A stretch of 34,580 bases of DNA from the sequence record SRR2962707_1538. One strand, written 5' to 3'. The notes under the pieces are model-generated. The model saw only the letters and a list, made by a program, of their open reading frames with translations, did no database searches and had not been told where the DNA came from. Every line of letters starts with the position of its first letter. Within the stretch, counting starts at the first letter, position 1. Made by a program: the position numbers and the translations under genes. Positions 4,635 through 34,580 of the stretch are shown piece by piece.

Positions 4635-4663
4635 CGCATCGTTCCATTGATCGAACGATGCGC
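4634..4663. terminator. Hairpin between convergent arsH and redoxin genes
   Basis: GCGCATCGTTC-N8-GAACGATGCGC forms an 11-bp perfect stem. No clear U-tract. Confidence 0.5.
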
Positions 4664-4678
4664 CAGTCCCGGATGGTT

Positions 4679-5215: not shown

Positions 5216-5268
5216 GGATAAAGCCTTTCAGTGTGGGGTTGTGTAAATATACTATCGGAAATAAAATC

Positions 5269-5302
5269 TGAAAAATCCGATTTAACTGATGAAAACACCG
5301 AT
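5269..5302. promoter_or_regulatory. Tandem direct repeat, probable AraC-family binding sites
   Basis: TGAAAAATCCGAT (5269-5281) and TGAAAACACCGAT (5290-5302): 11/13 identical with a 21-bp period, between the divergent redoxin and AraC genes. Confidence 0.5.
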
Positions 5303-6073: not shown

Positions 6074-6960
6074 CGCTGACGGGCAGCCCAGTTCTGGCCG
6101 ATGTCGTTTGCAAGATCGGCAATCGAGGCTTGGCTCCAGCCGCTGCGGCCACCTTTGATGTAGCCGACGAAGGCAAGTTTCCCACCCTTGCGCATGGCGG
6201 AAACAGCCACGCTGTCGGGCATGATCGTCCGGACCCCGTAGATTTCCATGATTGGCAGATCGAGCTGTGGCATGACGCGGTGAATGAGCTCGGTACAGAA
6301 TGTGCAGTCGGGCGAATCCACGTCGAACAGGAAGTCGAACTTCATGCCAATCGCACTGAAATAACCGTGCGCGGCCTTGCGCCGCTGTGCCAGGTTGCTG
6401 AAGCGCGGGCGCAGGATCGCCACGGCATCCGTGTTGAGCACGATCAAAGCTTTCGACAGATGCACGCCGCCTGAATCGGCTTCGACGAAAACCTGACCAT
6501 TGCGAATGCTGGCATTGTGCGGCCGGACCTTCGGGGATGACCAGACACCCAGGCGCTGAAGCTCCTGCTCCGTCCCAATATAGACCGCGGCATGACCGAA
6601 CAGCCCGGGTATGACCTGTCCTGACCGCCTTCCCTTGGAACTGACAAGCACGATGTCGAGCGGCTGGAGCACATCAAGGACGGCTTTCTGCGCGGCCGGC
6701 TTTGACTTGAGGTGACCACTGCGCCAGGCAACGTGGCTCAACACTGTCCCCAGTGTCGGCGCGACCGTACGCGCCATGTCCACAAACCAGGGTGGGTAGT
6801 CTTCCATGTTGGTGCAGCAGGCCGAAAGACTTGCCTTGGCGGGTTTGAGATCTGGCTTGTCAGAGCTGGACTGCGCGCATCCCTGGGCAACAGCCATGAG
6901 ACACAGGAGCAGGGCCACAAGCAAGCCGCGAACACTACGCAGGGAAACAGGAAAACTCAT
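6070..6960 (-). CDS. Exported permuted papain-like (YiiX/YebB-type NlpC/P60) cysteine hydrolase, probable lipoprotein
   Basis: Signal peptide ending AQGC; LQPLDIVL...FGHAAVYIG (His) precedes FDFLFD...FCTELI (Cys), the permuted order. Confidence 0.75.
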   Translation of the reverse strand: MSFPVSLRSVRGLLVALLLCLMAVAQGCAQSSSDKPDLKPAKASLSACCTNMEDYPPWFVDMARTVAPTLGTVLSHVAWRSGHLKSKPAAQKAVLDVLQPLDIVLVSSKGRRSGQVIPGLFGHAAVYIGTEQELQRLGVWSSPKVRPHNASIRNGQVFVEADSGGVHLSKALIVLNTDAVAILRPRFSNLAQRRKAAHGYFSAIGMKFDFLFDVDSPDCTFCTELIHRVMPQLDLPIMEIYGVRTIMPDSVAVSAMRKGGKLAFVGYIKGGRSGWSQASIADLANDIGQNWAARQR

Positions 6961-7116
6961 CCACACGACCAAAGATCAGAGGTATTCGGCCATGTGCGGA
7001 CGCCAGGCCAGGAACGGCCGCTCCTGAATGGCTTGATGTTGACCTTTGGTCAATGCCGATTGCTGAAGCGCTGCATTAGACATTGGTGCAACCGGTGATC
7101 GCCCCTGCGACAAGTC

Positions 7117-7716
7117 TTATTGCGATACAGGTACTGCGCGATAGCGGAAGTCCGCCATGTCATCTTCAATGCGACGCAATTCGGATTGCTGGCGACCGAT
7201 GTCCCGCTCCATGTCGCGGATGTTGCGACGGTTGTCGTCGATCCGTCGTTCCACGCTGCGACGGTCCTTTATACCGTCACGGATCAGTTTTTCATCATCG
7301 CGGATTGACTGTTCAAGCTCGCGGATGCGGGTTTCCAGAGAATTTATCTGTCGTTTCTTGGCATGGTGCACACGGCCAAGATCGTAGCCTTCACGGAAGC
7401 CCGCCTCAAGATTGGCAGGGCAGACATTGCCGTAGGCCTTGCCCTGGCTGCCGACGCTCAAACCATTGAGCGGTGTGCAATAGCGCGGGAGACCCTGCTG
7501 ATAACCCTGATACCAGACCGTCTGGTTGGCAGCCACACCTGCCTTGGCGCAGGCCTTGACGTGGCGCGCGAACCGGTCCTGGGGACTGTAACCTGCCGCG
7601 CCGTCCTGTTCGCCGATGACGCGCCAGTCGGCGATCGCGCACTCCTCTTTCGACATGGTTTGGCATGATGCAAGAAAAAGGCAGGCAAGAAGAACCAGTG
7701 CTGAATACAATTTCAT
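7117..7716 (-). CDS. DUF2799-like lipoprotein with C-terminal coiled coil
   Basis: Lipobox LASC; MSKEECAIADWRVIGEQDG...C...YQQGLPRYC...G..G..Y..VC pattern; charged heptad C-terminus. Confidence 0.75.
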   Translation of the reverse strand: MKLYSALVLLACLFLASCQTMSKEECAIADWRVIGEQDGAAGYSPQDRFARHVKACAKAGVAANQTVWYQGYQQGLPRYCTPLNGLSVGSQGKAYGNVCPANLEAGFREGYDLGRVHHAKKRQINSLETRIRELEQSIRDDEKLIRDGIKDRRSVERRIDDNRRNIRDMERDIGRQQSELRRIEDDMADFRYRAVPVSQ

Positions 7717-7861
7717 GATTATCCCCCAGACAACAGACAGACCCCGATATTTGATAGCAACTCGAGGCGCGGGAGACAAGCAACCATGAGGTCATCGCCT
7801 GGGAGCGCGTTGATTTCCGGTCACAGGAGGTGGCAGAATCTGCTTCACTTGCGTGGCCAAG

Positions 7862-7889
7862 AAAAAACCGGCCGTCAGAAACGGCCGGT
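7862..7889 (-). terminator. Rho-independent terminator of preT-preA
   Basis: ACCGGCCGT-cagaa-ACGGCCGGT stem preceded on + by an A-run, which is a U-tract on the minus strand. Confidence 0.8.
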
Positions 7890-7921
7890 CTATCATGGTG
7901 TAACTGGCGGGATCGGAAGAC

Positions 7922-9232
7922 TTATTCCGCAGCCTGTTTGGACATCGGATTGTTGGGATGCGTCGTCCAGTTGGCATACTCATGGTCGATCGGCTTGCCG
8001 GTTCGCGGGTCCGATCCTTCGGTCATCTCCACCATGGTGATGCAATCATCGACCGGGCAGACATTGACGCAGAGATTGCAGCCGACACACTCGTCGTCCA
8101 TCACCTCGAAATAGCGGGCTCCGTCGACCATCGAGGTGATCGCCTGATGCGAGGTGTCCTCGCAGGCAATGTGGCAACGACCGCACTTGATGCACAGATC
8201 CTGATCGATCTTGGCCTTGGTGATGTAGTTGAGGTTGAGATACTGCCAGTCGGTGACATTGGGCACCGCGCGGCCCTGGAAATCGGCGATGGTGGCGTAG
8301 CCCTTTTCGTCCATCCAGTCGGAAAGGCCTTCGGCCATTTCTTCGACGATCTTGAAGCCATAGGTCATGGCAGCGGTACAAACCTGAACCGTGCCGCAAC
8401 CCAGCGCAATGTATTCAGCGGCGTCGCGCCAGGTCTGAATGCCACCGATGCCCGAGATCGGCAGGCCGCGGGTCTGCACATCGCGGGCGATTTCCGCGAC
8501 CATGTTGAGCGCGATCGGCTTGACCGCCGGTCCGCAATAGCCGCCGTGCGAGCCCTTGCCGTCGATCGTCGGCGTGGGCGCGAAATTGTCAAGATCGATG
8601 GAGACAATCGACGAGATGGTGTTGATCAGTGACACCGCATCGGCGCCACCGGCCTTGGCAGCACGTGCCGGATAGCGGATGTCGGTGATGTTGGGCGTCA
8701 GCTTCACGATGACAGGCATGTTGGAGTAGTGCTTGCACCATTCAGACACCATCTGGATGTATTCGGGCACCTGGCCGACAGCGGCACCCATACCGCGTTC
8801 ACTCATGCCGTGCGGACAGCCGAAATTGAGCTCGATGCCATCGGCGCCGGTGTCTTCGACACGCGGCAGGATCGCCTTCCAGCTTTCCTCCTCGCAAGGA
8901 ACCATGATCGAGACGATCATTGCCCGGTCGGGCCAGCGTTTCTTGACTTCAGCGATCTCGCGGAGGTTGACCTCGAGATCGCGGTCGGTGATCAGCTCGA
9001 TATTGTTGAGGCCCAGAAGCCTGCGGTCAGGACCCCAGATGGCGCCATAACGCGGGCCGTTGACGTTGACGACCGGAGGGCCGGCCTCGCCAAGCGTCTT
9101 CCAGACGACGCCGCCCCAGCCAGCTTCAAAAGCGCGCTCGACATTGTAGGCCTTGTCCGTAGGCGGAGCCGAGGCAAGCCAGAAGGGGTTGGGGGATTTG
9201 ATACCGAGAAAATTGGTGGAAAGGTCAGCCAT
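7922..9232 (-). CDS. preA: NAD-dependent dihydropyrimidine dehydrogenase subunit PreA (PydA)
   Basis: NPFWLASAPPT, LNNIELI, ELNFGCPHGM and KLTPNITD motifs; C-terminal 4Fe-4S motifs CIKCGRC and CVGCNLC. Confidence 0.96.
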   Translation of the reverse strand: MADLSTNFLGIKSPNPFWLASAPPTDKAYNVERAFEAGWGGVVWKTLGEAGPPVVNVNGPRYGAIWGPDRRLLGLNNIELITDRDLEVNLREIAEVKKRWPDRAMIVSIMVPCEEESWKAILPRVEDTGADGIELNFGCPHGMSERGMGAAVGQVPEYIQMVSEWCKHYSNMPVIVKLTPNITDIRYPARAAKAGGADAVSLINTISSIVSIDLDNFAPTPTIDGKGSHGGYCGPAVKPIALNMVAEIARDVQTRGLPISGIGGIQTWRDAAEYIALGCGTVQVCTAAMTYGFKIVEEMAEGLSDWMDEKGYATIADFQGRAVPNVTDWQYLNLNYITKAKIDQDLCIKCGRCHIACEDTSHQAITSMVDGARYFEVMDDECVGCNLCVNVCPVDDCITMVEMTEGSDPRTGKPIDHEYANWTTHPNNPMSKQAAE

Positions 9233-9248
9233 GATATCTTTTCCTTCC

Positions 9249-10598
9249 TCAAGCCATCAGGGCTTTGTGAATGCTTTCGGCCGCGATCTTGCCGTCTTCG
9301 ACCGAGACCACGGTGAGGTCTTCGCCACCGGTGACGCAGTCTCCGCCAGCCCAGATCTTGGGATGCGAAGTGCGGCGGTCGGCAGCGGTGCGGATCCGGC
9401 CTTTTTCCAGCTCGATCGACATGATTGCCAGCGGATCTGCGTCCGGCGTCTGGCCGATGGCCTTGAACACCTGGTCGGCTTGAAGTGTCACCAGTTCTCC
9501 GGTGCCGGTCAGTTTGCCGGAGACGTCGAGTTCGGTCTTTTCCATGACGATGGCTTTGACGGCTCCATCCGAGACTTCGAGGCTCGTCGGCATCATCCAG
9601 TAACGGATGGAGACACCATGGGTCTGGGCCAATTCCTGCTCGTAGAGCGAGGCATTCATGTGCTCCTGACCACGGCGATAGGCGACGGTTACTTCCTCAG
9701 CGCCCAGCAGCTTTGACTGCATGGCTGCATCGATCGCGGTCATGCCGCCGCCGATGACAACGACACGGCGGCCAATTTCAAGCTGGGAGAGGTCTTCAGC
9801 CTGACGCAGCACCGCAATGAAATCGACAGCGTCGATGACGCCGGCGGCATCTTCATTGTCGAGACCCAGTGCGTTGACGCCGGGAAGGCCGACGCCGAGA
9901 AAAACCGCATCGAAATCGGCGGATAGCTGATCGAGGGTGATGTCTCTGCCGAGCGCCTTGCCGTTCTCGATGGTGATGCCGCCGATCTGCAGGATGAATT
10001 CGACTTCATCCTGGGCAAAATCATTGGTCGTCTTGTAGGACGCGATGCCATACTCGTTGAGGCCGCCGGCTTTCTCACGCGCTTCGTAGACGGTGACGTC
10101 GTGGCCGTGGGTGGCGAGGCGATGGGCGCAGGAGAGCCCTGCCGGGCCGGCGCCGATGACTGCAATTCTCTTGCCGGTCGGGGCGGCGCGGGTGAACGGA
10201 TGCGGTTGCTCGCGTTCCATGAAGGTGTCGGTGGCGTAGCGCTGCAGCAGTCCGATCTTGACCGGCTTGCCTTCGGCGGTTTCGCGCACGCAGACCTCTT
10301 CACAAAGGGTCTCGGTCGGGCAAACACGGGCGCACATGCCGCCCATGATGTTCTCTTCAAAAATGGTCTTGGCTGAGCCGACCGGGTTTGCTGCCTGGAT
10401 CTTGCGGATGAACATCGGAATGTCGATCGATGTCGGGCAGGCCGTCATGCACGGGGCATCGTAGCAAAAATAGCAGCGATCCGCCTCGACAAACGCTTCA
10501 TGCGGCGTCAGTGGCGGATGGATGTCGGAAAAGTTTTCGGCGTAGTCAGCGCTGGAAAGGCGCTTTGCCTTCACATCGTTTGTCTCGGACGCAGTCAT
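9249..10598 (-). CDS. preT: Dihydropyrimidine dehydrogenase subunit PreT (PydX, GltD-like)
   Basis: RCYFCYDAPC, CARVCP, GAGPAG and GGGMTAID motifs; immediately upstream of preA. Confidence 0.93.
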   Translation of the reverse strand: MTASETNDVKAKRLSSADYAENFSDIHPPLTPHEAFVEADRCYFCYDAPCMTACPTSIDIPMFIRKIQAANPVGSAKTIFEENIMGGMCARVCPTETLCEEVCVRETAEGKPVKIGLLQRYATDTFMEREQPHPFTRAAPTGKRIAVIGAGPAGLSCAHRLATHGHDVTVYEAREKAGGLNEYGIASYKTTNDFAQDEVEFILQIGGITIENGKALGRDITLDQLSADFDAVFLGVGLPGVNALGLDNEDAAGVIDAVDFIAVLRQAEDLSQLEIGRRVVVIGGGMTAIDAAMQSKLLGAEEVTVAYRRGQEHMNASLYEQELAQTHGVSIRYWMMPTSLEVSDGAVKAIVMEKTELDVSGKLTGTGELVTLQADQVFKAIGQTPDADPLAIMSIELEKGRIRTAADRRTSHPKIWAGGDCVTGGEDLTVVSVEDGKIAAESIHKALMA

Positions 10599-10804: not shown

Positions 10805-11635
10805 GTGACAGATTACCCGATCGCCGATTATGATGACGCATACGCCAATGGCGCTCACATTGAGGGTGCAGCCGATTTTCCGCCACGCTGGGCTGCCAAC
10901 GCGCAGGCGTTCCGCGAGGCGTTGAGCAAAGCGGGGAGGGCGCGTCTTGATGTCGAATACGGGACAGCCACAAGCAACCATCTTGACCTTTTCATGCCCG
11001 AAGGTGCGCCCAGGGGATTGGCGGTGTTTGTTCACGGCGGATACTGGAAGGCCTTCGACAAATCCTTCTGGTCGCATCTGGCGGCAGGGCCGCTGGCGCA
11101 CGGCTTCGCTGTGGCGATGCCGAGTTACACGCTCTGCCCTGAAAACCGGATTGCGGGGATTGGCCGCGAAATCGCGGCAGCAGTCAGTCTGGCTGCTGGC
11201 GAGGTGGCCGGGCCAATCCGGCTTACAGGGCATTCCGCCGGCGGGCAGCTGGTGACGCGGCTGATCAGCGGTTCGCCGCTGCTCTCAGACGAGGTGCTGG
11301 GCCGTATCGCAGGCGTGACCTCGATTTCCGGTGTTCACGACCTCAGGCCGCTGCAGCGCACCGAGATGAACGAGGCTTTGAAAATTGATGCGGCTGAAGC
11401 ACAGTCGGAAAGCCCGGTGCTTCTGGCGCCGCTGGCACCGGTTGCGGTTCATGCATGGGTCGGGGCAGACGAACGGCCGGAGTTCGTTCGCCAGAACCGG
11501 GCGCTTTACGAGATGTGGCGCGGGTTTGAGACGCCGATGCATTTGCATGAAGAGCCAGGCAAGCATCATTTCAATGTCATTGACGGGCTCGGTGATGCCG
11601 ATCACCCGCTCTGTCGTGTCTTCATGGGGCTGTAG
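10805..11635 (+). CDS. Alpha/beta hydrolase (arylformamidase/HSL-like esterase)
   Basis: HGGYW oxyanion motif, GHSAGG nucleophile and HHFNVI His. GTG start at 10805 after AAGGAG. Confidence 0.85.
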   Translation: MTDYPIADYDDAYANGAHIEGAADFPPRWAANAQAFREALSKAGRARLDVEYGTATSNHLDLFMPEGAPRGLAVFVHGGYWKAFDKSFWSHLAAGPLAHGFAVAMPSYTLCPENRIAGIGREIAAAVSLAAGEVAGPIRLTGHSAGGQLVTRLISGSPLLSDEVLGRIAGVTSISGVHDLRPLQRTEMNEALKIDAAEAQSESPVLLAPLAPVAVHAWVGADERPEFVRQNRALYEMWRGFETPMHLHEEPGKHHFNVIDGLGDADHPLCRVFMGL

Positions 11636-11781
11636 AGCTGGCGTCGTTGAAGGCGAGTGAGCTTGCTAGACGGCGAGATTAAGCAAATGTTCATGACAAT
11701 CTTCTAATTTGCCTGCCTCAGCATATGCCTTGCGACCAACAGGGCCGTCGTCCTTCCCGATCACACAATCCGGAAACAGCC

Positions 11782-14052
11782 ATGACGCATTCCAGGGCCA
11801 TGACGGGCCTACTCGCTCTGCTGGCAATCAATGTCATGCAAATGGACGCCGCAGCCAACGAGATGCTGCCTGATCCGGCATTTTCTCAATCTGCAGTGGT
11901 TGGAGAATGGTGGGCCACGCCAAACATCAAATTCGAGTACAAAGCCGGCGCGCTTTGCGGTCTGGTGGCCGGCGGCACTGAAAAACCATGGGATGCGATC
12001 CTCGGCCTCAACGGCCTGACGTTGAGAAAAGGCGAGCAATATCGCATGTCGGTCACAGTGTCGGGGGACCCGGCCGGGCCGATGCGGGCATTGGCGCAGA
12101 AGGGTGTAGAGCCCTGGACCCCGGAAGTGGAGATCAAGCGCCGGCTGAGCCCGGACAAACAAACCGTGAGCGAGGATTTCACAGCCAAGGATACGCACAC
12201 CCAGGCTCAACTGGTTTTCCAGCTTGGCGGGGCCGATGAGAGCTGGCGTTTTTGTCTGCATTCGGCGTCTTTGCAATCCGGCCAGAAGCCTGCGGCAAAG
12301 ACTGCTTCGACCCGCACTTCGGCGATCCGTGTCAATCAGCTGGCCTATTTTCCGAATGGCCCGAAGCACGCGACTTTGGTGCGCAAGGGCCGTTCGAGCG
12401 CCAGTTGGAAGCTGGTCTCGGCTTCTGGCGAAACAGTGGCGTCGGGGAGCAGCAAGGCTGCTGGTCGGGATGCATCCTCGGGACTTGAGGTTCACACCAT
12501 CGACTTCAGCGGATTCCGCGGGAAAGGCGATGGCTACCGGCTGGTTGTGGACACTGACACAAGCCCACCCTTCTCCATTTCTGACCGTGCCTATGAAAGC
12601 CTGCGGGCAGACGCGCTGAGCTATTTCTACAAAGTGCGCAGCGGCGTTGAGATCAAGGAAAAATATGCGGGAAAGGGCTACGGCCGCCCGGCCGGGCATC
12701 TGGGCAAACCGCCCAACCAGGGAGATACCTCGGTAGGCTGCGTGGATGCTCGCACGGCACGAAAAGTCTACGGCAAATCCTGGAGCTGTGACTACCGGCT
12801 CAACGTTGCCGGCGGCTGGTACGATGCAGGTGACTTTGGCAAATATGTCGTCAATGGCGGAATAGCAGCGGCACAGTTGCTTGGCGTTTACGAGAGGGCG
12901 CTACACCGCGGCCGCGGCAAATCACCGGCGGTTACGGATTCTCTTGCGCGTATTCCGGAGGCAGGAAACGGCATTCCCGACATTCTCGATGAAGCGCGAT
13001 GGGAGCTCAATTTCCTGATGTCGATGAGGGTTCCGGAGGGTGAAACCTATGCCGGGATGGCGCACCACAAGGTCCACGGCAACAGCTGGGCGTCGTCGCC
13101 CAGTTTTCCGCACCGTGACCGGGAATTGCGCGTTCTGCACAGGCCGTCGACAGCTGCCACACTCAATCTGGCTGCAGCCGCGGCGCAAGGTGCGCGTCTT
13201 TTCGCTCCGTTTGACAAGGCCTATTCGAATTGGTTGCTGGTGGGTGCAATCCGGGCTTATGGCGCCGCGGAAGCCAATCCGGCAGTCTATGCACCTCACA
13301 CCGATGGCAGTTTCGGCGGTGGCGACTACCAGGACGATGATGTCAGCGACGAATTCTATTGGGCGGCGTCGGAACTGTATCTGAGCACGGGAGACAAGGT
13401 CTGGCTTGATCGCGCAAAGGCTTCACCTCATTGGGACGGTCCGGTTTTCCACCCCACAGGCTTTGACTGGCGCTCGGTTGCGGCGCTCGGACGCATTCAG
13501 CTTGCCGCGGTTCCATCAAAACTGCCAATGCGCGATCTCAAGACGGTGCAATCCTCAGTCAGGGATGCAGCCGAGGGGTATCTGCGGGACCAGCGAAAAG
13601 AGGCGTTCGGCTTCATGTATCATCCCAAACGGTTCGGCTGGGGGTCGAACCATTTGCTGATGCAGAACATGATCGTTGTCGCCACCGCTTACGATATTAC
13701 CGGCGACAAGCGCTATCTGCAGGCAGTTAGGGAGAGCATGGACTATATACTCGGACGCAATGCGCTCGGGATATCCTATGTCACCGGCTACGGCACGACC
13801 TACGCCCAGCGGCAGCATTCCAACATGTTCGCGGCCTCAATCGATCCATCGTACCCAGCAGTGCCCAAAGGTGCGATTGCCGGCGGTCCAAACAGCGGGC
13901 TTGCCGACGATTATGCCATCAGCAAGCTGAAGGGATGCGCGCCGCAGACCTGTTATGTCGACGATGCGCGCTCTTATTCGACCAACGAAATCGCCATCAA
14001 CTGGAACGCGCCACTGGTTTGGATGGCTTCGTTTCTGGCTGATACCCCGTAA
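11782..14052 (+). CDS. Secreted glycoside hydrolase family 9 endoglucanase (signal peptide-CBM4-Ig-GH9)
   Basis: N-terminal hydrophobic signal; CBM4-like LCG...KPWDAIL; Ig-like IRVNQLAY; GH9 motifs GGWYDAGDFGKY, DEFYWAASELY, YVTGYG and YSTNEIAINWNA. Start is 11782 or 11800. Confidence 0.9.
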   Translation: MTHSRAMTGLLALLAINVMQMDAAANEMLPDPAFSQSAVVGEWWATPNIKFEYKAGALCGLVAGGTEKPWDAILGLNGLTLRKGEQYRMSVTVSGDPAGPMRALAQKGVEPWTPEVEIKRRLSPDKQTVSEDFTAKDTHTQAQLVFQLGGADESWRFCLHSASLQSGQKPAAKTASTRTSAIRVNQLAYFPNGPKHATLVRKGRSSASWKLVSASGETVASGSSKAAGRDASSGLEVHTIDFSGFRGKGDGYRLVVDTDTSPPFSISDRAYESLRADALSYFYKVRSGVEIKEKYAGKGYGRPAGHLGKPPNQGDTSVGCVDARTARKVYGKSWSCDYRLNVAGGWYDAGDFGKYVVNGGIAAAQLLGVYERALHRGRGKSPAVTDSLARIPEAGNGIPDILDEARWELNFLMSMRVPEGETYAGMAHHKVHGNSWASSPSFPHRDRELRVLHRPSTAATLNLAAAAAQGARLFAPFDKAYSNWLLVGAIRAYGAAEANPAVYAPHTDGSFGGGDYQDDDVSDEFYWAASELYLSTGDKVWLDRAKASPHWDGPVFHPTGFDWRSVAALGRIQLAAVPSKLPMRDLKTVQSSVRDAAEGYLRDQRKEAFGFMYHPKRFGWGSNHLLMQNMIVVATAYDITGDKRYLQAVRESMDYILGRNALGISYVTGYGTTYAQRQHSNMFAASIDPSYPAVPKGAIAGGPNSGLADDYAISKLKGCAPQTCYVDDARSYSTNEIAINWNAPLVWMASFLADTP

Positions 14053-26747: not shown

Positions 26748-27338
26748 GTGGCCAAGCTCTATTTCAGCTACTCAACCATGAATGCGGGCAAGTCGACGCT
26801 GTTGTTGCAGGCTTCCTACAACTACCGCGAACGCGGCATGCGAACCGTGCTGTTCATCGCAGCTTTCGATGATCGCGGAGGGGTCGGGCGCATCGCATCA
26901 CGCATCGGGCTCGACAGTGAGGCGCATACCTTCCGGCCGGAAGACAATCTCTATGAGCTTCTTGAGGGCTTGAAAGCCGATGGTGATATTGCTTGTGCTT
27001 TCGTTGATGAAGCGCAGTTCCTCACAGAACAGCAGGTCTGGCAGTTGGCACGCGTGGCCGACAGGCTGAAGATCCCGGTGATGACGTACGGTCTGCGCAC
27101 GGATTTCCGCGGCAAACTGTTTCCCGGGTCGGAGGCTCTCCTGGCGCTTGCGGATGAACTTCGCGAAGTCCGCACCATCTGCCATTGCGGGCGCAAGGCA
27201 ACAATGGTGGTCCGGATGGACGGGCAAGGCCAGGTGATCCGGGAGGGCGCCCAGATCGAAGTCGGCGGCAACGAGAAATATGTGTCGTATTGTCGCCGTC
27301 ACTGGGACGATGTGATGAATCCCGAGGCTCTGAAATAG
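26748..27338 (+). CDS. tdk: Thymidine kinase
   Basis: AKLYFSYSTMNAGKSTLLLQ, VDEAQFL, YGLRTDF, ICHCG and YVSYCRRH motifs. GTG start after GGGAG. Confidence 0.95.
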   Translation: MAKLYFSYSTMNAGKSTLLLQASYNYRERGMRTVLFIAAFDDRGGVGRIASRIGLDSEAHTFRPEDNLYELLEGLKADGDIACAFVDEAQFLTEQQVWQLARVADRLKIPVMTYGLRTDFRGKLFPGSEALLALADELREVRTICHCGRKATMVVRMDGQGQVIREGAQIEVGGNEKYVSYCRRHWDDVMNPEALK

Positions 27339-27475
27339 CAATCTTGTGCGGATTCGACGCTGTTTTTACCTGATTCTGATGTGATCGCGATGGCTTGCCT
27401 ACAAAAGTGCTGATTGCCCTCGCATTGGACTAGGTTATAACAGCGCTATCTGAATAATCCGAACGGAGACAGTCT

Positions 27476-27874
27476 ATGCGCATTTCACTTTCCATGTTGT
27501 TTGGGGCGGCAATTGCTGTTGTCGTTGCTGCTCCCACTCTCGCATTCGCCGATGGCGATGCCGTCAAGGGTGCCAAGATCTTCAAGAAATGCGGCGCTTG
27601 CCACACTGCGACTGAAGAAAAGAACAAGGTCGGCCCACACCTGGTCGGCATTATTGATCGGCCGATCGCCTCGGTTGAAGACTACAAATATTCACCGGCC
27701 ATGACCGAGCATGTGGCCGAGGTGCCGACGTGGACAGTCGAAGCGCTGGACGCTTTCCTGCGCAGCCCGAAAGGCGTGGTCAAGGGCACCAAGATGGCTT
27801 TTGTCGGCCTGAAGAAAGACAAGGATGTCGCCGACGTCATCGCTTATCTTACGGATCCTGCTGCCGCAGAATGA
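27476..27874 (+). CDS. Class I cytochrome c (c2/c550-like)
   Basis: Signal peptide, CGACH heme motif, KVGPHL and GTKMAF axial Met. Confidence 0.93.
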   Translation: MRISLSMLFGAAIAVVVAAPTLAFADGDAVKGAKIFKKCGACHTATEEKNKVGPHLVGIIDRPIASVEDYKYSPAMTEHVAEVPTWTVEALDAFLRSPKGVVKGTKMAFVGLKKDKDVADVIAYLTDPAAAE

Positions 27875-27900
27875 ATCCTGCCGGCGATGCCGATACCACA

Positions 27901-27930
27901 GGCCGTTCCTTCGGGAGCGGCCTTTTTTTT
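27901..27930 (+). terminator. Rho-independent terminator after cytochrome c
   Basis: GGCCGTTCC-ttcg-GGAGCGGCC followed by T8. Confidence 0.88.
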
Positions 27931-28071
27931 CACCTTCATCGTACCTACCTCTTGCTTCGGTAAGGTTTCCGGAGCACGCAACCAGTGCTAATAAAGCTTT
28001 GGTGTCCGGCGCTACTGGACCAGTCGTGTGAGCGTGCTTTCAGGTAACGCAGAAAAACAGGGGAATTGGAC

Positions 28072-29160
28072 ATGGCCGATATCAAGGCACTTGATGCAGA
28101 AATCGAGAAAACCCGCTCCGTCGTCAACGATATGCGGTCGAAGATCGAGGCATCGGGTGTTGTGCTCGAGAAAATGTCCGAGGCTGACGCCCAGCTTGGC
28201 GACCCGCAGTTCGATATTGAAAATGCCCGTATCCAGGATGTGTTGCGCCAGCAGCGGATGATGGAAACCAATATTGCCGATCTGATTATTGGGCTTGAGG
28301 ATGCGACCAATGTTTTCGGCGCCGAGTTCGAAAGCATGAAAGGCTTTTCCGGAATGGAGAGCTTCATTGCGATTTTCTCCAAGGGCCGGGCGCAGCGCAT
28401 GCGTTCGGATCGCGTTCGCAACATGTCACTGTCGGGCAATCTTCAGGAGCTGTTGAAGAAGTCCGACACCATTACCGGCATTCTCAAAGACCAGAAGGAT
28501 ATCCTCGACAGCCGTTACAAGACGTCTGAGGCCAGCCTGATCAAGGTGATCGAGCGCCGCAAGGTCACCATGGCCAATCTCGAAGCCACGCAGCAGCGGA
28601 TCGAGGAACTCAATCCACTGCTGATGGATATCGAAAACCAGATCGCAGCCTCAACGGACCAGAAAACCCGCACCGACCTTGAAAGCGACCGTTCGAAGCT
28701 CGCCACCGAGTACAACCAGCGGCAGGCCAAGGAACAGGAACTGCTGGCCGAAAGCCAGACGCTGGAGCGCTATACCTCGATGTTCCAGACTTTCGTGGAC
28801 TCGCTCAACAACCAGATCGCGGCGCAGAACACGCTGATCAACAAGCTGACCATCGATACCGAGCAGCGCATCGTGCTTTACAAGGCGCTCGAGGATTCAT
28901 TGAAGACGGCTGCGCAGCAGGACGTCGCCCACAAGATCAATACGCTCGGCAGCCGGGTCGATACGGCGGCGGAAGAAACCATGGCCGGCATTGGTGCCGC
29001 AGCGCAGACCCATATTGGCGATCTTCTGGAAATGCATGAGAAGAACATGCTTTCGACCAAGGATATCCAGCGCCGCAAGCAGCTTGCCGACGATGCGTTT
29101 GCCAGACGCTTCTCGGAAGTTCTGGAAAAGCACAATTCAGCCAATTACGTGAAACCCTGA
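28072..29160 (+). CDS. Hypothetical long coiled-coil protein (possibly TelA-like), first gene of operon
   Basis: 362-aa ORF with strong codon bias; almost entirely helical and rich in E/K/Q/L. ATG 28072 follows AGGGGA. Confidence 0.85.
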   Translation: MADIKALDAEIEKTRSVVNDMRSKIEASGVVLEKMSEADAQLGDPQFDIENARIQDVLRQQRMMETNIADLIIGLEDATNVFGAEFESMKGFSGMESFIAIFSKGRAQRMRSDRVRNMSLSGNLQELLKKSDTITGILKDQKDILDSRYKTSEASLIKVIERRKVTMANLEATQQRIEELNPLLMDIENQIAASTDQKTRTDLESDRSKLATEYNQRQAKEQELLAESQTLERYTSMFQTFVDSLNNQIAAQNTLINKLTIDTEQRIVLYKALEDSLKTAAQQDVAHKINTLGSRVDTAAEETMAGIGAAAQTHIGDLLEMHEKNMLSTKDIQRRKQLADDAFARRFSEVLEKHNSANYVKP

Positions 29161-29188
29161 GCCGGTATGATGAAGGTGAGGGGTCGCC

Positions 29189-30334
29189 ATGCGCGCTGAC
29201 ACCGGTGCAGCCGGAGCCTATTTCAGGTCGATGCATGCGGCCTTGAAAGGCCTGCGTGTCTATCTGGCCGATGACAATTCGCCGCTCTACGCACATGGCC
29301 TGGTTGGCCAGGTGATCATCCCGTATGTCGATCGACTGGAAGCAACGTTTTCGGCCTGGGAAAACCGTGTCGGTTTTCTCGAACGCTTCCGCATCAGCCA
29401 GGCCGACAGCGGCTTTCCAACGTTTCAGAATGTGCTGACGCTGGAGAATGATCGGTCGACAGCCGAAGAACGGCTGGCGGCGATCCCGGACGTCGAGACG
29501 CTGAAAGCCGAAATGGCCGATTTCATCCTGCGCCACAAGGAATTTCCCGGCACGCTGCAGGAACAGATTGCCGAACGTCTCTATCTCGAAGACATCGGCA
29601 AGGACGCAGTCTTTGCGCCGTTCATCCTGCCCGAGACCATCCGTGTTTCGGTCAATCCGAAAAACGGACGGCCTTACTATGTGGTTCACTGGGGTGTGTT
29701 CGACGGCAGTCAGACGCTGCCGATGGTCTATATGGCGACGATCGAGGATTCGAGCGAGTCCATTGCCAAGATGCTGGTGACCAAGGACGGCAAGCTCAAT
29801 CCCGATGTCGATATCCCGCTGCCGGTGGGCGGGTTGCTCAATCCTGAATATGCCCGGGCCTTTGATGCCTCGGCTGAAAAACACGGCGCCTATTCGCTTT
29901 CGCCGGTGACCATCGCGCAAAACCTCGATGCCGATTTCGAGCATCTGCACCCCAAGCAATTGCGCCGTTTCGTGTTGGGGCCGTTTTATTCGGCGGGCGT
30001 CACCGAGAATTCAGACCGGATCTCGACCATCCTGTCCAAGGTGCGCAAGGACGAGAACGCATGGCTTCTGACATGGACCCTGCAGGAGGTGTTTTCCAAG
30101 ACCGAACGCCCGGCCAAGCGGGGGCTGTGGAGCTCGGAGCCGGCGCGCGACGAGTACCACATCGAAACCGATGATCTGGAAGCAACACGGCAGGGCGTCA
30201 GTGCTTATCAGAAACACGCGCTTGTTCCGCACGAAGCCTATCAGGCGCTTTATGCGTCAGGCGAAGCCGAGAGCATTTTCTCGGGCTTCACCGTGCATGT
30301 GATCTCCGGCAACCAGGTCATCAGCGAGGTATGA
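29189..30334 (+). CDS. Hypothetical cytoplasmic protein
   Basis: 381-aa ORF with GAGGGG RBS, in operon. No motif recognised. Confidence 0.82.
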   Translation: MRADTGAAGAYFRSMHAALKGLRVYLADDNSPLYAHGLVGQVIIPYVDRLEATFSAWENRVGFLERFRISQADSGFPTFQNVLTLENDRSTAEERLAAIPDVETLKAEMADFILRHKEFPGTLQEQIAERLYLEDIGKDAVFAPFILPETIRVSVNPKNGRPYYVVHWGVFDGSQTLPMVYMATIEDSSESIAKMLVTKDGKLNPDVDIPLPVGGLLNPEYARAFDASAEKHGAYSLSPVTIAQNLDADFEHLHPKQLRRFVLGPFYSAGVTENSDRISTILSKVRKDENAWLLTWTLQEVFSKTERPAKRGLWSSEPARDEYHIETDDLEATRQGVSAYQKHALVPHEAYQALYASGEAESIFSGFTVHVISGNQVISEV

Positions 30335-30338
30335 AATC

Positions 30339-32255
30339 ATGAGCCAGTCGACAGGCCTGACGACCATTTCCGAAGAAGATATCGCAAAGCACCAGGCGGT
30401 GGCGCAATCGATGGTGAGTCGCGTTGTGGTGATGGTTGCCCAGGATGGCGGGTCCACGACGCCGCTGGCGGGCACCAACAGGCGGTTCGTCTCCACCGTG
30501 TCGACCCGTGGCATGCGACGAACCCGCGAGATCGAACTGGGCAAGACCATCCAGTCGGTTCGCGCCAATGACCCGATGCTGTCGATCCAGCAGCACACGC
30601 TGCTCTACCGGACGCGCCGGGGCATCTCGGTGGCGCTGGCGGTTGCAGAGATGTTTGCCCAGCAGACCGATCTTGAAAGCCTGCAATCGCGTAACGCCGG
30701 AGCGCCGCTGCAAGGCGATGAGGCCGAGCGTTTCAAGCGTCTGCTGTCGGCTTCGGCCTATGTGGCGGCGTTCACGCTTGCTGCCTATATTCTGCAGACT
30801 GTCGATGGCGAAAGCGAACCGGCGAACGACACCGAAGAGCCGGATTTCCAGTTCGATACCCCTCAGGATGCGCTGAAATCGATTGTCGCCGCACTTGACG
30901 AGGCGATTTCCGGTGCGCCGGACGAGATCGCGATGACCTCACGGGCCCGCGCTCTGGCCCGGGTTGCAATCGAAGGCCTGATCAGCCGCCGCGCCCGGTT
31001 TGAGGCGCTGAGCGGTTTCGCGCAATCGCATCTGCGGCTGGAAAGCGACAATTTCACGCTCGACGGTTTCGATGTGGCGCCCGGTCAACGCCGCAAGCCG
31101 CTGGTGATGAGCTTCAAGAAGCCCAACGAGATTATCGGCAACCATCTGGCCAAGCATCAGGCGATGCGGCTGGCGCGGATGGTCATGGCCTATGATTTTG
31201 ACCGCCAGCTCAATCCGTTTGTCGAACTCGGCGGCTTCCTGTTCACCTTTATTGGCGACGGTGCACCCGGCACCGGCAAGACCATCCTGATCCAGATGCT
31301 GGCCGGGATGATCAATGATTATTGCCAGGTCGCGGGCTATCCGTTCCACTACGAGAATTTCGGCGTCGACCAGATTTCATCCTATCAGGGCAAGTCGGGC
31401 CAGAACTGCAAGGCCTTTGTCGACAATGTGCTCAACCCCCGCGCCATCGGCTTCGGCACCATCGACGACATTGATCAGGTTGCCGCCAAGCGCTCGGACG
31501 ACAGAGCCTCCGCAGGCCAGCAAGAAGTCACCGCCGTGCTGATGGAGAGCTTTGCCGGCGCTTCCACGGTGGTGCGGGGCAATTGCAGTTTCGGCATGTT
31601 CTCCAATTATCCGGAGAATGTCGATGATGCGCTCAGACAACGCGCCGGGGCGCGCTGGCTGGTTGACGGACCGCAATCGCTTGATGATTACATCGACATT
31701 TTCGCGCTGCTGGCTGGCAAGAATCACTCGATCTTGCTCGGCTCGCATGATCTGTTTGCCAGCCAGGAAATCAAGCAGGCGGTGGCACGCTCCTATGACG
31801 GGCATGATGAGCCACAGGAAGAGGGGCTTCTCTCTGTCTGGGAACGGTTTGAGAAAGACCACGGCAAGGTCAAGACAATCTCGGACATCGGCGCCTATCT
31901 GCACCAGATCAAGCTGGCCGAACCGCGCTTTACCGGGCGCGCGATCAAGAACATCACCGATGCAATCAAGATGCGGGCGATGGACATCGATCTTCCGGAC
32001 GAATGGTTCGAGATACCAGAAGCCTTCATGCACAAGCCCTATGATGACAAGGTCGCGATGATCTCTGAGCTGCGCAAGCCGTTCACCATCGAGATGGTGC
32101 TGCAGGAGATCAACCGCTACGCCGATTCCGAGTTCCGCTACACTGACCGCTCCGATGCGACAGCCGTGGATGACATCATCCGGCGTGAGCGGCAGCGTGA
32201 ACGGGCGATCCGCGAGATCGAGGCGATGAAACGCGACGGGCGCTGGCAACAATGA
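30339..32255 (+). CDS. AAA-family ATPase with ~250-aa N-terminal domain
   Basis: Walker A GAPGTGKT, pore-loop SSYQGKS, Walker B variant FGTIDDID, SRH-like SNYPENVDDALRQR and FTGRAIKNI. Confidence 0.88.
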   Translation: MSQSTGLTTISEEDIAKHQAVAQSMVSRVVVMVAQDGGSTTPLAGTNRRFVSTVSTRGMRRTREIELGKTIQSVRANDPMLSIQQHTLLYRTRRGISVALAVAEMFAQQTDLESLQSRNAGAPLQGDEAERFKRLLSASAYVAAFTLAAYILQTVDGESEPANDTEEPDFQFDTPQDALKSIVAALDEAISGAPDEIAMTSRARALARVAIEGLISRRARFEALSGFAQSHLRLESDNFTLDGFDVAPGQRRKPLVMSFKKPNEIIGNHLAKHQAMRLARMVMAYDFDRQLNPFVELGGFLFTFIGDGAPGTGKTILIQMLAGMINDYCQVAGYPFHYENFGVDQISSYQGKSGQNCKAFVDNVLNPRAIGFGTIDDIDQVAAKRSDDRASAGQQEVTAVLMESFAGASTVVRGNCSFGMFSNYPENVDDALRQRAGARWLVDGPQSLDDYIDIFALLAGKNHSILLGSHDLFASQEIKQAVARSYDGHDEPQEEGLLSVWERFEKDHGKVKTISDIGAYLHQIKLAEPRFTGRAIKNITDAIKMRAMDIDLPDEWFEIPEAFMHKPYDDKVAMISELRKPFTIEMVLQEINRYADSEFRYTDRSDATAVDDIIRRERQRERAIREIEAMKRDGRWQQ

Positions 32256-33553
32256 AGCGGCTGGTCGAAAACGAACTGATCTACGGCCGGCTGCTGCCGG
32301 TGGCGGAACCGCACCTGGTGGCGCGCTACAACAAGGCGCTCCGGGCGTTCGGGCTGCCGGAAACCAAACTCGACAGTTTCCAGATCGACATGACCGGTTT
32401 TTCTCCGGAAATCGCCGAGGAACTTGGCGATGTGCAGTATCTTGATCCCAATGGCGTCAATCGCCGCTTTGTCGTGCTGACGCCGGAGCAGGAGAACCTG
32501 CCGGTGGTTCACACGCAGTTTTCAAACACCGCCGGGCTGATGCACCAGTTCTTCGACGGCAATCGCCGGGCCGTCCATGCCGTGACGATCAAGGACGCAT
32601 TGTTTGGCGAGATCGAAGAGCCGATCGACGTGGTCACCGGAGTCGAGGACCTGCTGTCGATCAACGAGATCCGTTTCCGAGTGATGTCGGCGGAAAACAT
32701 GCTGGGCAAGGCCACCGAGCTTCGCGCTCTGGTTGACCGTCTCAAGTCGTCGAGAGACGGCTGGCGCGACGACGCCATGCTCAACCGGATGGTTGAACTG
32801 GCGCGCGAGACCGGAGATATCCGGCAAAACGCGCTCGTGCCTGACAAACTCGTGTTTCCTCACACTTCCTTCTGGGCCAATCATTTCGGCGGCGTGTTCA
32901 TCTTCCGGGATGATCGTACCACCACGGTAATCTGCGACAGCCACGCGCCGGGGTTCCGGCGATCGCGTCCGTGGGAAGTCAGCTATATCGACATAGGCGA
33001 TCACGCCCGGATCTTTGATTTTCTGACGAAGTCCGAACGGTTGCAATTGCCACGTGCGTCCTGGGTCGAGCCCTCGGGCTTCTTCGCTCACCGGGCGGAA
33101 ATGGCGGTGGACGATCTCATTCGCCGTGCTGATCCTTCCGTTGATCTTGCTGGAACCGACAGGATCTGGCTGCAGACCTGGATGCACCGAAATTCTGCGC
33201 TGATTGCCGAGGAGGGGACCTATCCCTTCCTGCAGGAGGCGATGCGCGAAGTGGCCACCACCGGACAGGTGAAGATGCGGGAGGTGCGGACAGACAGAAA
33301 ACTGATGTTGTGCCGTGCAAACCCCGGCCATCCGGACCAGTGGCTAATCAACCGGCTTCTGGCGCGACTGGCGCCGTTTGACTTTGTCAGCCGCTTCATC
33401 TTTGACAAACACGGTTTTTACGAAGCTTATGAAGGCTATTCCGATAGCTACCGCGCCCATGTCGTGGACGTTCTCGGGACGACCTATCTGAACAACAAGG
33501 CAGCGCTCAGGTCGCGGCTTTACGGACTGGAAGGATATCAAGACCATGTTTGA
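32252..33553 (+). CDS. DUF6638-like hypothetical protein
   Basis: 433-aa ORF with ATGA overlap on the ATPase. The N-terminus LVARYNKAL...FQIDMTGFSPEIAEELGD.YLDPNGVNRRF recalls DUF6638; family name is from memory. Confidence 0.7.
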   Translation: MKRLVENELIYGRLLPVAEPHLVARYNKALRAFGLPETKLDSFQIDMTGFSPEIAEELGDVQYLDPNGVNRRFVVLTPEQENLPVVHTQFSNTAGLMHQFFDGNRRAVHAVTIKDALFGEIEEPIDVVTGVEDLLSINEIRFRVMSAENMLGKATELRALVDRLKSSRDGWRDDAMLNRMVELARETGDIRQNALVPDKLVFPHTSFWANHFGGVFIFRDDRTTTVICDSHAPGFRRSRPWEVSYIDIGDHARIFDFLTKSERLQLPRASWVEPSGFFAHRAEMAVDDLIRRADPSVDLAGTDRIWLQTWMHRNSALIAEEGTYPFLQEAMREVATTGQVKMREVRTDRKLMLCRANPGHPDQWLINRLLARLAPFDFVSRFIFDKHGFYEAYEGYSDSYRAHVVDVLGTTYLNNKAALRSRLYGLEGYQDHV

Positions 33554-34580
33554 CCCGGTGATCGAGTTTTTCGAGCGGATTTTCAACGCCATCGGCCGCG
33601 GCATCGGGATGGTGATAGCTTTCCTGCTCTGGCCGTTTGTCACAGTGGCGGGCTGGTACCGGCGCCGGGGTTTCATGCTCAAGGCGATTGTTGGCGGCAT
33701 CCTTCTTATCTTCTTCGGTCTTTACGGCTATTTCTTCTGGCAGACCCAGGTCTGGACCGGGTTCGATCCTGACTATCCGAGCAAGCGCGAAGCCTTGGCA
33801 ACAACGCCGGGAACCAAGCAGGCTGACGGCACCTGCGCTCCTTCGGCGATGGTTTCGGCGACGTCGGATCTCATCGATTTCAACGTCAATCAGAATGCCT
33901 GGATCTCGTCGATGATCCTCTACAAATCCGGCCTGTTCGGGGTGGATTGGGATCATACGCCGTTCTTTGACAACAAGGCTGCATTCCAGCGCGGTGTGAA
34001 CCAGGCGATCCGCCGGACCACGGTCGAATTTGTTGACACGCTTGGGCGCGTGCGCGGCACCAGTCAGGTCGATGGTGATCTGCAGGATGCCCGCGGCGCC
34101 ATGCAGTTTGATGAATACACCTGGTATTTCGGCGTGAGCCCATTCGGTCCGAAGACCCCGACGCCGTCGTTCTACCGCTCGGCGATCGATGATCTGCAGG
34201 CCTTCAATGGCCGCCTTACCAAGTGCGAAGCGGTTTACGATGCGCGAACAGATAATCTGGTGCAATTCCTTGACCGGATTGCTTCGGACGTCGGCTCAAC
34301 TTCCGCGATCCTGCGGGACCGTTCAGAGAACTACAATTCGGGTTGGTTTGATACGCGTGCAGATGACCGGTTCTGGTTCTCCTACGGCCAGCTCTATGGC
34401 TATTACGGCATTCTGAAAGCCACCCGCGACGACTTTCGCGATGTGGTCGCGCAGCGCAATCTTGAGCAATTGTGGGATGATATGGACGTTCAGCTGGCGG
34501 CTGCGCTGAAGATTCAGCCATCCATCATTTCCAATGGCAACGAAAGCGGATGGATCATGCCGACGCATCTGGCGACGATG
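33546..34580 (+). CDS. DUF2333-like membrane-anchored periplasmic protein (runs off right edge)
   Basis: Not in the ORF track. Manual translation from ATG 33546 gives MFDPVIEFFERIFNAIGRGIG...RRRGFMLKAIVGGILLIFFGLYGYFFW (TM)...FFDNKAAFQRGVNQAIRR...RVRGTSQVDGDL...DDRFWFSYGQ...IMPTHLATM. The frame is open for 345 codons and overlaps the upstream gene by 8 nt. Confidence 0.8.
   Translation, partial: MFDPVIEFFERIFNAIGRGIGMVIAFLLWPFVTVAGWYRRRGFMLKAIVGGILLIFFGLYGYFFWQTQVWTGFDPDYPSKREALATTPGTKQADGTCAPSAMVSATSDLIDFNVNQNAWISSMILYKSGLFGVDWDHTPFFDNKAAFQRGVNQAIRRTTVEFVDTLGRVRGTSQVDGDLQDARGAMQFDEYTWYFGVSPFGPKTPTPSFYRSAIDDLQAFNGRLTKCEAVYDARTDNLVQFLDRIASDVGSTSAILRDRSENYNSGWFDTRADDRFWFSYGQLYGYYGILKATRDDFRDVVAQRNLEQLWDDMDVQLAAALKIQPSIISNGNESGWIMPTHLATM

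Follow-up and report, generated by a model that had tools for sequence, protein, structure and literature searches.

A strictly linked gene set for an AAA ATPase, a helical protein and an exchangeable membrane protein, possibly a membrane-associated remodelling module

Introduction

Which task could be served by a five-gene operon in which a biochemical role can be assigned to the ATPase only, and three of whose five proteins have no assignable fold or family? The question is raised by a stretch of 34,580 nucleotides (nt) from sequence record SRR2962707_1538 (the window, which denotes the whole stretch and supplies the numbering used here), at the end of which five open reading frames (ORFs), O1 to O5, follow one another on the plus strand from position 28072 to the last nucleotide. 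A sequence-only reading of the window had proposed an operon of five or more genes behind a strong terminator, encoding a helical scaffold, two cytoplasmic proteins, an AAA ATPase of the remodelling type and a periplasmic protein anchored by transmembrane (TM) segments, and had likened the ATPase and the scaffold to Vps4 and ESCRT-III. It is possible, though held here at less than even probability, that the product of the operon is an AAA remodelling module, membrane-associated and of a kind not yet described, in which the ATPase O3 would act on the helical protein O1 after its recruitment by the membrane protein O5.

The four-gene core, O1 to O4, is intact in rhizobia, including the model symbiont Sinorhizobium meliloti, in Vibrio and in contigs related to Riflebacteria, and conservation as strict as this is usually the mark of a machine with a specific task. 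In bacteria, it is uncommon for a classical AAA ATPase to come with dedicated partners.

Results

Conservation of the gene set

The linkage of the genes, which the sequence-only reading expected to recur in other genomes, does so far beyond chance. When O4 was used to scan a single genome for each species, 138 relatives were obtained, and the best 80 of these, all from Hoeflea, Rhizobium, Pararhizobium, Shinella, Ensifer/Sinorhizobium or close kin, were used as the set of Rhizobiaceae loci. The five genes stand in identical order in 78 of the 80, and the two exceptions (L039 and L070) are cut by a contig end and retain O4, O5 and a part of O3. Three loci (L036, L075 and L079) contain some partial matches, which may represent frameshifts or assembly errors; when these are set aside, the identities between Hoeflea and the other genera are 77-83% for O1, 73-76% for O3, 67-73% for O2, 65-70% for O4 and 56-65% for O5.

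The order and strand of O1-O2-O3-O4 are also kept in all 14 distant alphaproteobacterial loci, with identities (L110 and L111, which are of rhizobial type, excluded) of 39-45% for O1, 27-31% for O2, 49-51% for O3 and 30-33% for O4. A metagenome scan seeded with the distant branch of O2 returned seven loci, and the same order, with overlapping genes and 25-44% identity, was found in three complete (L137, L138 and L141) and two partial ones (L140 and L143); of 32 matches to a distant O2-family member, one is named, and it comes from Candidatus Riflebacteria. In a plasmid collection, Vibrio vulnificus and V. parahaemolyticus were found to carry O1 to O4, at 26-39% identity, on replicons of 0.9 Mb. 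The set is present in S. meliloti Ak57 (L195, CP090106.1), where the products are annotated as hypothetical, hypothetical, ATP-binding protein, hypothetical and "DUF2333 family protein". This Ak57 record comprises 3.7 Mb and is labelled pSymB, yet it carries chromosomal genes (cho transporter, tdk, fhs).

DUF6638, the family of O4, is sparse: among 401 genomes sampled from the class five reach its cut-off, and among 401 from the phylum 23 do. Within Hoeflea and the Rhizobiaceae inheritance is largely vertical, and a search of viral contigs and phage records for relatives of O2 found none. O1 to O4, all of them cytoplasmic, are inherited as a fixed unit.

The ATPase

Pfam agrees with the earlier assignment of O3, O4 and O5 to the AAA, DUF6638 and DUF2333-like families, respectively, and gives no family for O1 and O2. 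The match of PF00004 to O3 covers residues 308-438 (43 bits against a cut-off of 21.2, E 7.7e-11). The Walker A motif, G-A-P-G-T-G-K-T at 308-315, is present in 99/99 homologues. The Walker B motif, I-D-D-I-D at 375-379, has the form hDDxD in all 99 and the DE form in none; the canonical hhhhDE with its catalytic Glu is thus departed from in that the acidic pair is kept with Asp in place of Glu. This Asp-Asp Walker B is a hallmark of the O3 family and, because the Glu is always Asp, hydrolysis would probably be slow or gated.

A pore loop, S-Y-Q-G-K-S-G, occupies residues 348-354; Y349-Q-G recurs in all nine printed sequences spanning the range, including those of the Vibrio and metagenome loci, and the stricter form S-Y-x-G in 93 of the 99 homologues. 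The second region of homology runs from the sensor-1 residue N423 through A-L-R433-Q-R435 to R439, with N423 and ALRQR conserved in all sequences inspected, and a stretch M-E-S-F stands where relatives hold the inter-subunit signalling motif. The names and definitions of the pore-loop, signalling, sensor-1 and arginine-finger elements are those in use in the literature. O3 is a classical AAA protein with a conserved pore-loop Tyr and possesses the elements of the threading type, in line with the remodelling-type ATPase of the sequence-only reading.

The closest solved relative of O3 is the ATPase domain of the i-AAA protein Yme1 (5ubv, 2e-5), followed by PAN (3e-4) and Rpt (1e-3). In NCBIfam, CDC48 (TIGR01243) matched with 2.3e-5 and 22.9 bits against a family cut-off of 802, and PADLOC-DB 2.0 gave a single, weak match for the operon, TRIP13 on the ATPase core of O3 (2.4e-4), and none for O1, O2, O4 and O5. 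About 255 N-terminal amino acids (aa) and the long C-terminal region, which holds the conserved stretches RFTGRAIKNITDA and QEINRYADSEFRY, match nothing and are family-specific. Within the N-domain, residues 135-153 (window 30741-30797) form a borderline hydrophobic helix (hydropathy 1.53), the character of which is conserved in distant homologues; it could be a buried or a membrane-dipping element.

The helical protein O1

O1 is the most conserved and slowest-evolving member of the set, with ~40% identity in distant loci and ~100 invariant columns, as would be expected of a protein with many contacts. It has 1513 homologues, and nearly all named ones are "hypothetical". Pfam assigned it no family even at E<=10, and 11 homologues of O1 likewise lacked the TelA and the Snf7/ESCRT-III/PspA families. 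The AlphaFold 2 (AF2) model is all-helical (pLDDT 66.7, pTM 0.43) and contains, at a pLDDT of ~90, a long hairpin of residues ~120-193 and 197-270, in keeping with the helical scaffold proposed earlier. A TM segment is absent, the maximum hydropathy being 0.91.

A profile search of the PDB with O1 yielded only the t-SNARE Vti1 (E 0.25). The top row in Foldseek was AhlC (E 1.6e-2, TM-score 0.59 on the target), and nothing was found at E<=1e-3. The widest overlaps with the model were those of XaxA (Z 12.2 over 226 residues), AhlC (12.1 over 182), ClyA (11.5 over 217) and AhlB (11.2 over 250), values within the range common for helical bundles, and ESCRT-III hairpins matched at Z 10.2-11.3 over only 77-112 residues, all in the hairpin. 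In a protein-atlas search, 17 of the 30 matches listed were clusters in which 10% of the members carry TelA (best 0.96). The operon-bearing Hoeflea genome G001 contains no match to PF04012 (PspA) or PF05816 (TelA), and another operon-bearing genome (G096) encodes a true TelA separately, elsewhere.

The pairing of an O1-like gene with DUF2333

Five genomes (G632, G741, G457, G551 and G753) without any DUF6638 match encode a DUF2333 protein 57-59% identical to O5, and in these the gene stands directly behind one whose product resembles O1 (28-29% identity over ~315-354 residues, E 1e-36 to 1e-39), less closely and over a shorter stretch in G753. O2, O3 and O4 were not found in the fetched stretches around the five pairs, of which at least one (L154) follows directly on thymidine kinase, the chromosomal context of the operon in the window and in S. 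meliloti. The O1-like proteins are mutually 56-82% identical and hence under selection.

They keep the first 270 residues of O1 in outline and lack residues 273-293 (LEDSLKTAAQQDVAHKINTLG) as well as the motif MAxIGxA at 304-310, both of which vary little or not at all in the O1 proteins that accompany the ATPase. This two-gene form without ATPase links O1 to the membrane protein DUF2333. Our reading of it is that O1 would work with the membrane protein, that O2-O3-O4 would be a separable addition, and that the segment missing from the O1-like proteins is a candidate for the contact with O2-O3-O4. Among 14 more distant DUF2333 loci (27-46% identity), no O1-like neighbour was detected.

The exchangeable membrane protein

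The match of O5 to PF10095 (DUF2333; 58.3 bits against a cut-off of 22, E 8.4e-16) falls into two stretches, the best of which spans profile positions 64-199 of 330, and its subfamily is divergent, typical DUF2333 members reaching ~E 1e-150. Hydrophobic segments at 14-38 and 41-66, separated by YRRRG, lead into a linker that varies in length and then a domain in which two Cys residues are invariant. This arrangement suggests that the domain is probably periplasmic, and with its two TM segments O5 fits the anchored periplasmic protein of the sequence-only reading. A profile search of the PDB returned nothing significant.

The fifth gene is a clade-specific, swappable membrane protein. Among the 23 genomes with DUF6638 in the 401-genome sample of the phylum, all nine of one type have DUF2333 adjoining and all 14 of the other type have DUF1523 adjoining; in 12/12 non-rhizobial alphaproteobacterial loci, DUF1523 follows downstream in the same orientation. 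DUF2333 is not related to DUF1523 (hhalign 0.8%), and both occur widely alone, DUF2333 in 75 and DUF1523 in 33 of the 401 genomes. DUF1523 proteins have a TM segment at each end of a ~120-residue domain and a cytoplasmic tail. On the presumed cytoplasmic side, each family has a conserved short peptide by the TM segment, M-[LF]-D-P-[IV] in DUF2333 (O5 residues 1-21, window 33546-33610) and R-I-D-P-x-L-E in the DUF1523 tail, which may be a shared docking motif or a matter of chance.

Two deep, recombining alleles of O5 exist in Hoeflea, a feature newly described here. In 10 of 22 Hoeflea loci O5 is of type A, with 364-365 aa and 84-98% identity to the protein of the window, and in 12 it is of type B, with 368-370 aa and about 54-59% identity over the whole length. 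The DNA of L001 and L002 (O5 at 11295-12404) is mostly 86-94% identical, except for O5 and for lower values upstream of O1; within O5, from ~100 nt after its start up to the stop codon, the two agree at only 48-70%, and beyond it the identity is ~80% again. The ~21 N-terminal residues are conserved across both alleles, and a recombination break lies just beyond them, the break points on both sides falling barely within the ends of the gene. In the O5 tree, each type forms one side of a branch with a support of 100/100, and type A groups with other genera, whereas on the tree of O1+O3+O4 the type label needs six changes, at least four of them forced, which is no better than shuffled labels. Hoeflea alexandrii holds both types (strains G21627-S1 and DSM 16655). 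The allele pattern and the discordance of the trees indicate that the body of the O5 gene has been repeatedly exchanged by recombination, a pattern typical of proteins under outside pressure of one kind or another.

O2 and O4

O2 matched nothing in Pfam, NCBIfam and PADLOC, although its family comprises 621 representative clusters at E<=1e-3. Its AF2 model (pLDDT 81.1, pTM 0.82) shows a bundle of helices at the N-terminus and an alpha/beta domain at the C-terminus. No PDB entry was found with Foldseek at E<=1e-3 or with the profile below E 0.79, the best Z in a wide VIA fold search was 5.5 and confined to a helical stretch, and the viral models of BFVD gave only levivirus maturation proteins with a TM-score of ~0.1. 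The C-terminal domain bears a faint resemblance to T-folds (DHNA, urate oxidase, QueD2 and DHNTP epimerase; Z 4.3-4.8 over 94-120 residues), which is below what the search tool counts as meaningful. A HORMA/TRIP13 (CBASS-like) reading was dropped, as the fold-search rows of O2 contain no HORMA-like chain.

PF20343 (DUF6638) matches O4 with 263 bits (cut-off 27, E 4.8e-78) at profile positions 2-412 of 439. By hydropathy neither O2 nor O4 has a TM segment. The profile of O4 found no significant solved relative in the PDB. Nine of its ten best family-carrying atlas matches are nucleotide-sugar transferases with scores of 0.86-0.88, which are weak leads from a language model towards a glycosyltransferase of type A (GT-A), as they lie under the lead threshold of 0.9 and few features (107 of 256) are shared; a strand-borne DxD motif was looked for in the alignment and none was seen.

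The operon, its junctions and its surroundings

The five co-oriented ORFs, their terminator and their spacings were as described before, with 28 nt between O1 and O2, 4 nt between O2 and O3, a 4-nt ATGA overlap of O3 and O4 and an 8-nt overlap of O4 and O5 (Table 1). The terminator forms the 5' boundary of the operon. Its hairpin is kept in five other Hoeflea loci, with compensatory changes in the stem, and so are the ribosome-binding site (RBS) and the ATG of O1. A sigma-70 consensus was looked for on the plus strand of the leader and not found, and this region has, besides O5, the lowest conservation between L001 and L002. Rfam gave a sole match for 27300-34580, a sub-threshold sbrA on the terminator hairpin.

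In L001, a metagenome-assembled genome of Hoeflea, all five proteins are 96-98% identical to those of the window, which indicates that the window is part of a Hoeflea chromosome. There, O5 has 365 aa, and behind it come a LuxR-type gene in convergent orientation, a regulator of the Lrp type and putA; thus, the "five or more" genes of the sequence-only reading are five, and ~20 codons of O5 are missing from the window. The remainder of the window contains ordinary genes for metabolism and transport, including a proVWX-like transporter, thymidine kinase and cytochrome c, and no SPFH, PspA, TelA, mobile or defence genes. The site among housekeeping genes (tdk, cytochrome c, the operon and, further on, fhs) is conserved.

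Amid the metabolic genes of this chromosome, which is that of a marine rhizobial bacterium, window 11725-14049 encodes a cellulase-like, 775-aa protein of glycoside hydrolase family 9 with CelD_N and CBM_4_9. In Pararhizobium, a 315-aa gene with a signal-like N-terminus and without Pfam family lies on the same strand between DUF2333 and fhs (L021:12426-13370), at the place where Hoeflea has luxR, lrp and putA.

The O3/O4 junction of relatives is a hot spot for the insertion of toxin-antitoxin and DUF559 genes, which is likewise a new observation. The window has a bare 4-nt overlap, whereas the gap exceeds 60 nt in 51 of the 80 relatives, mostly owing to inserted genes. In S. meliloti Ak57 (L195), O3 and O4 are separated by a gene for a DUF559 endonuclease and by an ISRm16 transposase (8106-9851). 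The translational coupling suggested by the sequence-only reading is consistent with the overlap in the window; in view of the inserts, coupling of O3 and O4 is not a conserved feature. In one distant locus (L089:10988-11818, minus strand), an extra 276-aa gene with a hydrophobic N-terminus and without Pfam family lies between O3 and O4.

Table 1. Features of the operon in the window, of the O3/O4 junction in the 80 Rhizobiaceae loci and of the two-gene form
Feature	Location	Strand	Remarks
Intrinsic terminator of upstream cytochrome c gene	27900-27931	+	10-bp stem, 7 G-C pairs, then T8
Leader/promoter region	27932-28071	+	RBS AGGGGAA ahead of O1 ATG
O1	28072-29160	+	362 aa from ATG; in-frame TTG 6 nt upstream at 28066
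O2	29189-30334	+	381 aa; unnamed family; cytoplasmic
O3	30339-32255	+	638 aa; classical-clade AAA ATPase
O4	32252-33553	+	433 aa; DUF6638; cytoplasmic
O5	33546-34580 (window end, frame still open)	+	345 of about 365 aa; DUF2333 membrane protein
Junction <60 nt, window-like	O3/O4 junction		29/80 loci
RHH antitoxin and ParE toxin	O3/O4 junction		17/80 loci
ParE-like toxin and HTH-XRE protein	O3/O4 junction		16/80 loci; Pfam on L025 only, others by similarity
DUF559 endonuclease-like gene or remnant	O3/O4 junction		12/80 loci
Phd/YefM and PIN pair (2 Hoeflea loci) or remnant (1)	O3/O4 junction		3/80 loci
Gap of 121-142 nt without such ORFs	O3/O4 junction		3/80 loci
Example junction inserts	L021:9455-9974; L025:9302-9977; L031:9600-10001; L012:9325-10001		Equivalent to window 32252
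Pair of O1-like gene and DUF2333	L154:10163-12596; L155; L162; L166; L164		

Discussion

The tentatively favoured explanation of the operon, a membrane-associated AAA module, can be put as a sequence of steps. O5 would reside in the inner membrane, and its conserved cytoplasmic N-terminal peptide would recruit O1 to the membrane face, where O1 would assemble via its long hairpin. O3 would be targeted by O2 and/or O4 as adaptors, would engage O1 at about residues 273-310 and would thread it through its pore, so that the assembly would be dismantled or reset; with the Asp-Asp Walker B, hydrolysis would probably proceed slowly or under control. The likely role would be the maintenance of the envelope or membrane, triggered from the periplasmic side. 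A bolder version, which we regard as rather improbable, would make the operon an ancient machine of several phyla in which a slow Asp-Asp AAA protein cyclically assembles and strips a helical-hairpin scaffold on the inner membrane, governed by interchangeable periplasmic sensors, a counterpart of ESCRT-III/Vps4 in logic and not in ancestry, the sensor being under diversifying selection as the target or the detector of external attack.

It should be noted that several results weigh against the module as outlined. The roles given to O2 and O4 are pure inference. Neither DUF2333 nor DUF1523 follows O4 in the distant metagenome loci and in the Vibrio record (in V. vulnificus, L196, NZ_CP015514.1, O1 to O4 at 4644-10192 are followed by mfd), so that the core can exist without a recognisable membrane partner. 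No O1-like gene and no O1 to O4 gene was found in the fetched stretches of 19 stand-alone DUF1523 loci; thus, the pairing of O1 with its partner applies to DUF2333 only. The fold searches with O1 produced a flat, non-discriminating list of long helical proteins (Z <=12.4), and its alignments reveal no profile similarity to PspA/ESCRT-III (hhalign 3.3% with PspA) or to TelA (0.2%). At E<=0.01, PF00004 is the only Pfam match of O3, and a MIT or Vps4_C domain is absent. With its Asp-Asp Walker B, O3 could moreover be a nucleotide-gated switch instead of a processive unfoldase.

Four other explanations compete with the membrane-associated module. In a conflict system against phages, bacteriocins or other attackers, the variable periplasmic domain of O5 would sense the invader or toxin and the AAA module would execute the response; the two deep O5 alleles, about 55-60% identical and with sharp boundaries, which sort independently of the O1+O3+O4 tree and within one species, would fit such a function, as would the three kinds of toxin-antitoxin genes and the DUF559 endonuclease at the O3/O4 junction of relatives and the weak TRIP13 match of O3. 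Nevertheless, this explanation is unlikely: PADLOC found nothing else on the five proteins, an effector domain (nuclease, NADase or pore former) was not recognised, the operon occupies a fixed housekeeping site without mobile or defence genes nearby and is inherited largely vertically in Hoeflea and the Rhizobiaceae, and O2 has no relative in the viral contigs and phage records. Slightly less probable is a device for export or membrane insertion, in which O1 would be an inserting protein like ClyA, AhlC or XaxA, O3 would unfold or prime it and O2 would serve as its chaperone. Components of alpha-pore-forming toxins do account for the widest overlaps with the O1 model and AhlC for the top Foldseek row, but these matches lie in the range common for helical bundles and include none at E<=1e-3, confidence in the O1 model is no more than moderate, a hydrophobic segment is missing from O1, and the operon encodes no multi-pass channel component.

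A quality-control or regulatory unfoldase, composed of O3 and the adaptors O2 and O4, would extract or unfold clients of the membrane or the cytoplasm, with O1 as its regulator, in the way that PspA regulates PspF, and not as its substrate. The closest solved relatives of O3, Yme1 and the proteasomal ATPases, and its borderline hydrophobic helix would agree with this; however, a protease domain or gene is found neither in the operon nor as a conserved neighbour, and dedicated partners, not general clients, are what one would expect from four genes so strictly linked and from an O1 so highly conserved. The proposal is improbable. The modification of an envelope polymer or lipid by O4 as a GT-A-type glycosyltransferase, to which the other proteins would be accessory, is the least probable of the four: it takes up the nucleotide-sugar transferase families among the atlas matches of O4, but these stay under their threshold, neither the DxD motif nor a solved relative by sequence is there to back them, and the AAA motor would be left unexplained.

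For experiments on the membrane-associated module, four handles are offered by the natural variation: the two-gene form that lacks the AAA protein, the existence of two alleles of O5, the exchange of DUF2333 for DUF1523, and the ATPase-linked segment of O1.

The operon matches no characterised system, as the sequence-only reading had assumed, and no description of the system was found in literature searches. Likewise, nothing was found on DUF6638, and papers mentioning DUF1523 are, by title and abstract, not about its function. The choXWV genes of S. meliloti correspond to SMc02737-39, and by this numbering and the gene order in Ak57, SMc02733 could be the orthologue of O3; when the tags SMc02728-SMc02738 were searched in the literature, a mention turned up for SMc02733 only. 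In a DNA-binding screen with S. meliloti ChvI, the bound fragment F9 lies inside SMc02733, given there as a gene without annotation (PMC3687685). DUF2333 is only named, beside the hcp3 locus of a type VI secretion system, in another paper (PMC5256989).

Among known systems, Vps4/CdvC with ESCRT-III and PspA/Vipp1 come to mind because they, too, place a classical AAA protein with an aromatic pore-loop residue beside a soluble protein with a long hairpin, and are linked to the membrane. The operon differs from them: O3 lacks MIT and Vps4_C and has the Asp-Asp Walker B, O1 has 362 aa with ~120 extra N-terminal residues and no Snf7/PspA family signal, and the obligatory O2 and O4 have no counterpart. 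Of the flotillin, PspA and TelA neighbours that the sequence-only reading named for similar genes in rhizobia and roseobacters, none was seen among 44 flanking proteins of the distant loci or in the window. Judged by its profiles, O1 is not demonstrably an ESCRT-III, PspA or TelA protein, while a Vps4-like mechanism would be compatible with the data. The resemblance to TelA (PF05816) is one of size and helical character, in contrast to the 0/11 O1 homologues that match Pfam TelA, the negligible hhalign value and the separate true TelA of G096.

The PspF-PspA-PspB/C system likewise combines an AAA+ protein with a coiled-coil protein and with small sensors in the inner membrane, all encoded together, and responds to the state of the membrane. 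However, PspF, a sigma-54 activator, belongs to a different AAA+ clade from that of O3 with its single Pfam match, PspA found no match in the Hoeflea relative G001, and O5 is set apart from PspB/C by family name only. Yme1/FtsH, PAN/Rpt and Cdc48 provide the best sequence matches to the ATPase core of O3, but with scores far under the cut-offs, and O3 has no protease domain or double ring and N- and C-terminal regions of its own. The ClyA family (AhlC, XaxA, YaxA and ClyA) resembles the O1 model in its elongated helical bundle and long hairpin and overlaps it most widely; here the similarity is not significant, and O1 has neither a hydrophobic head nor a secretion context and is conserved like a housekeeping protein. 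An EccA/EspG logic as in type VII secretion was dropped, the FtsK-type ATPase and the channel being absent. By analogy, the logic of the operon seems most like that of Vps4/ESCRT-III or Psp, but by the traits tested it belongs to neither. If the module does remodel a membrane-bound scaffold, it would represent an independent bacterial solution to the task that ESCRT-III/Vps4 or PspA fulfil.

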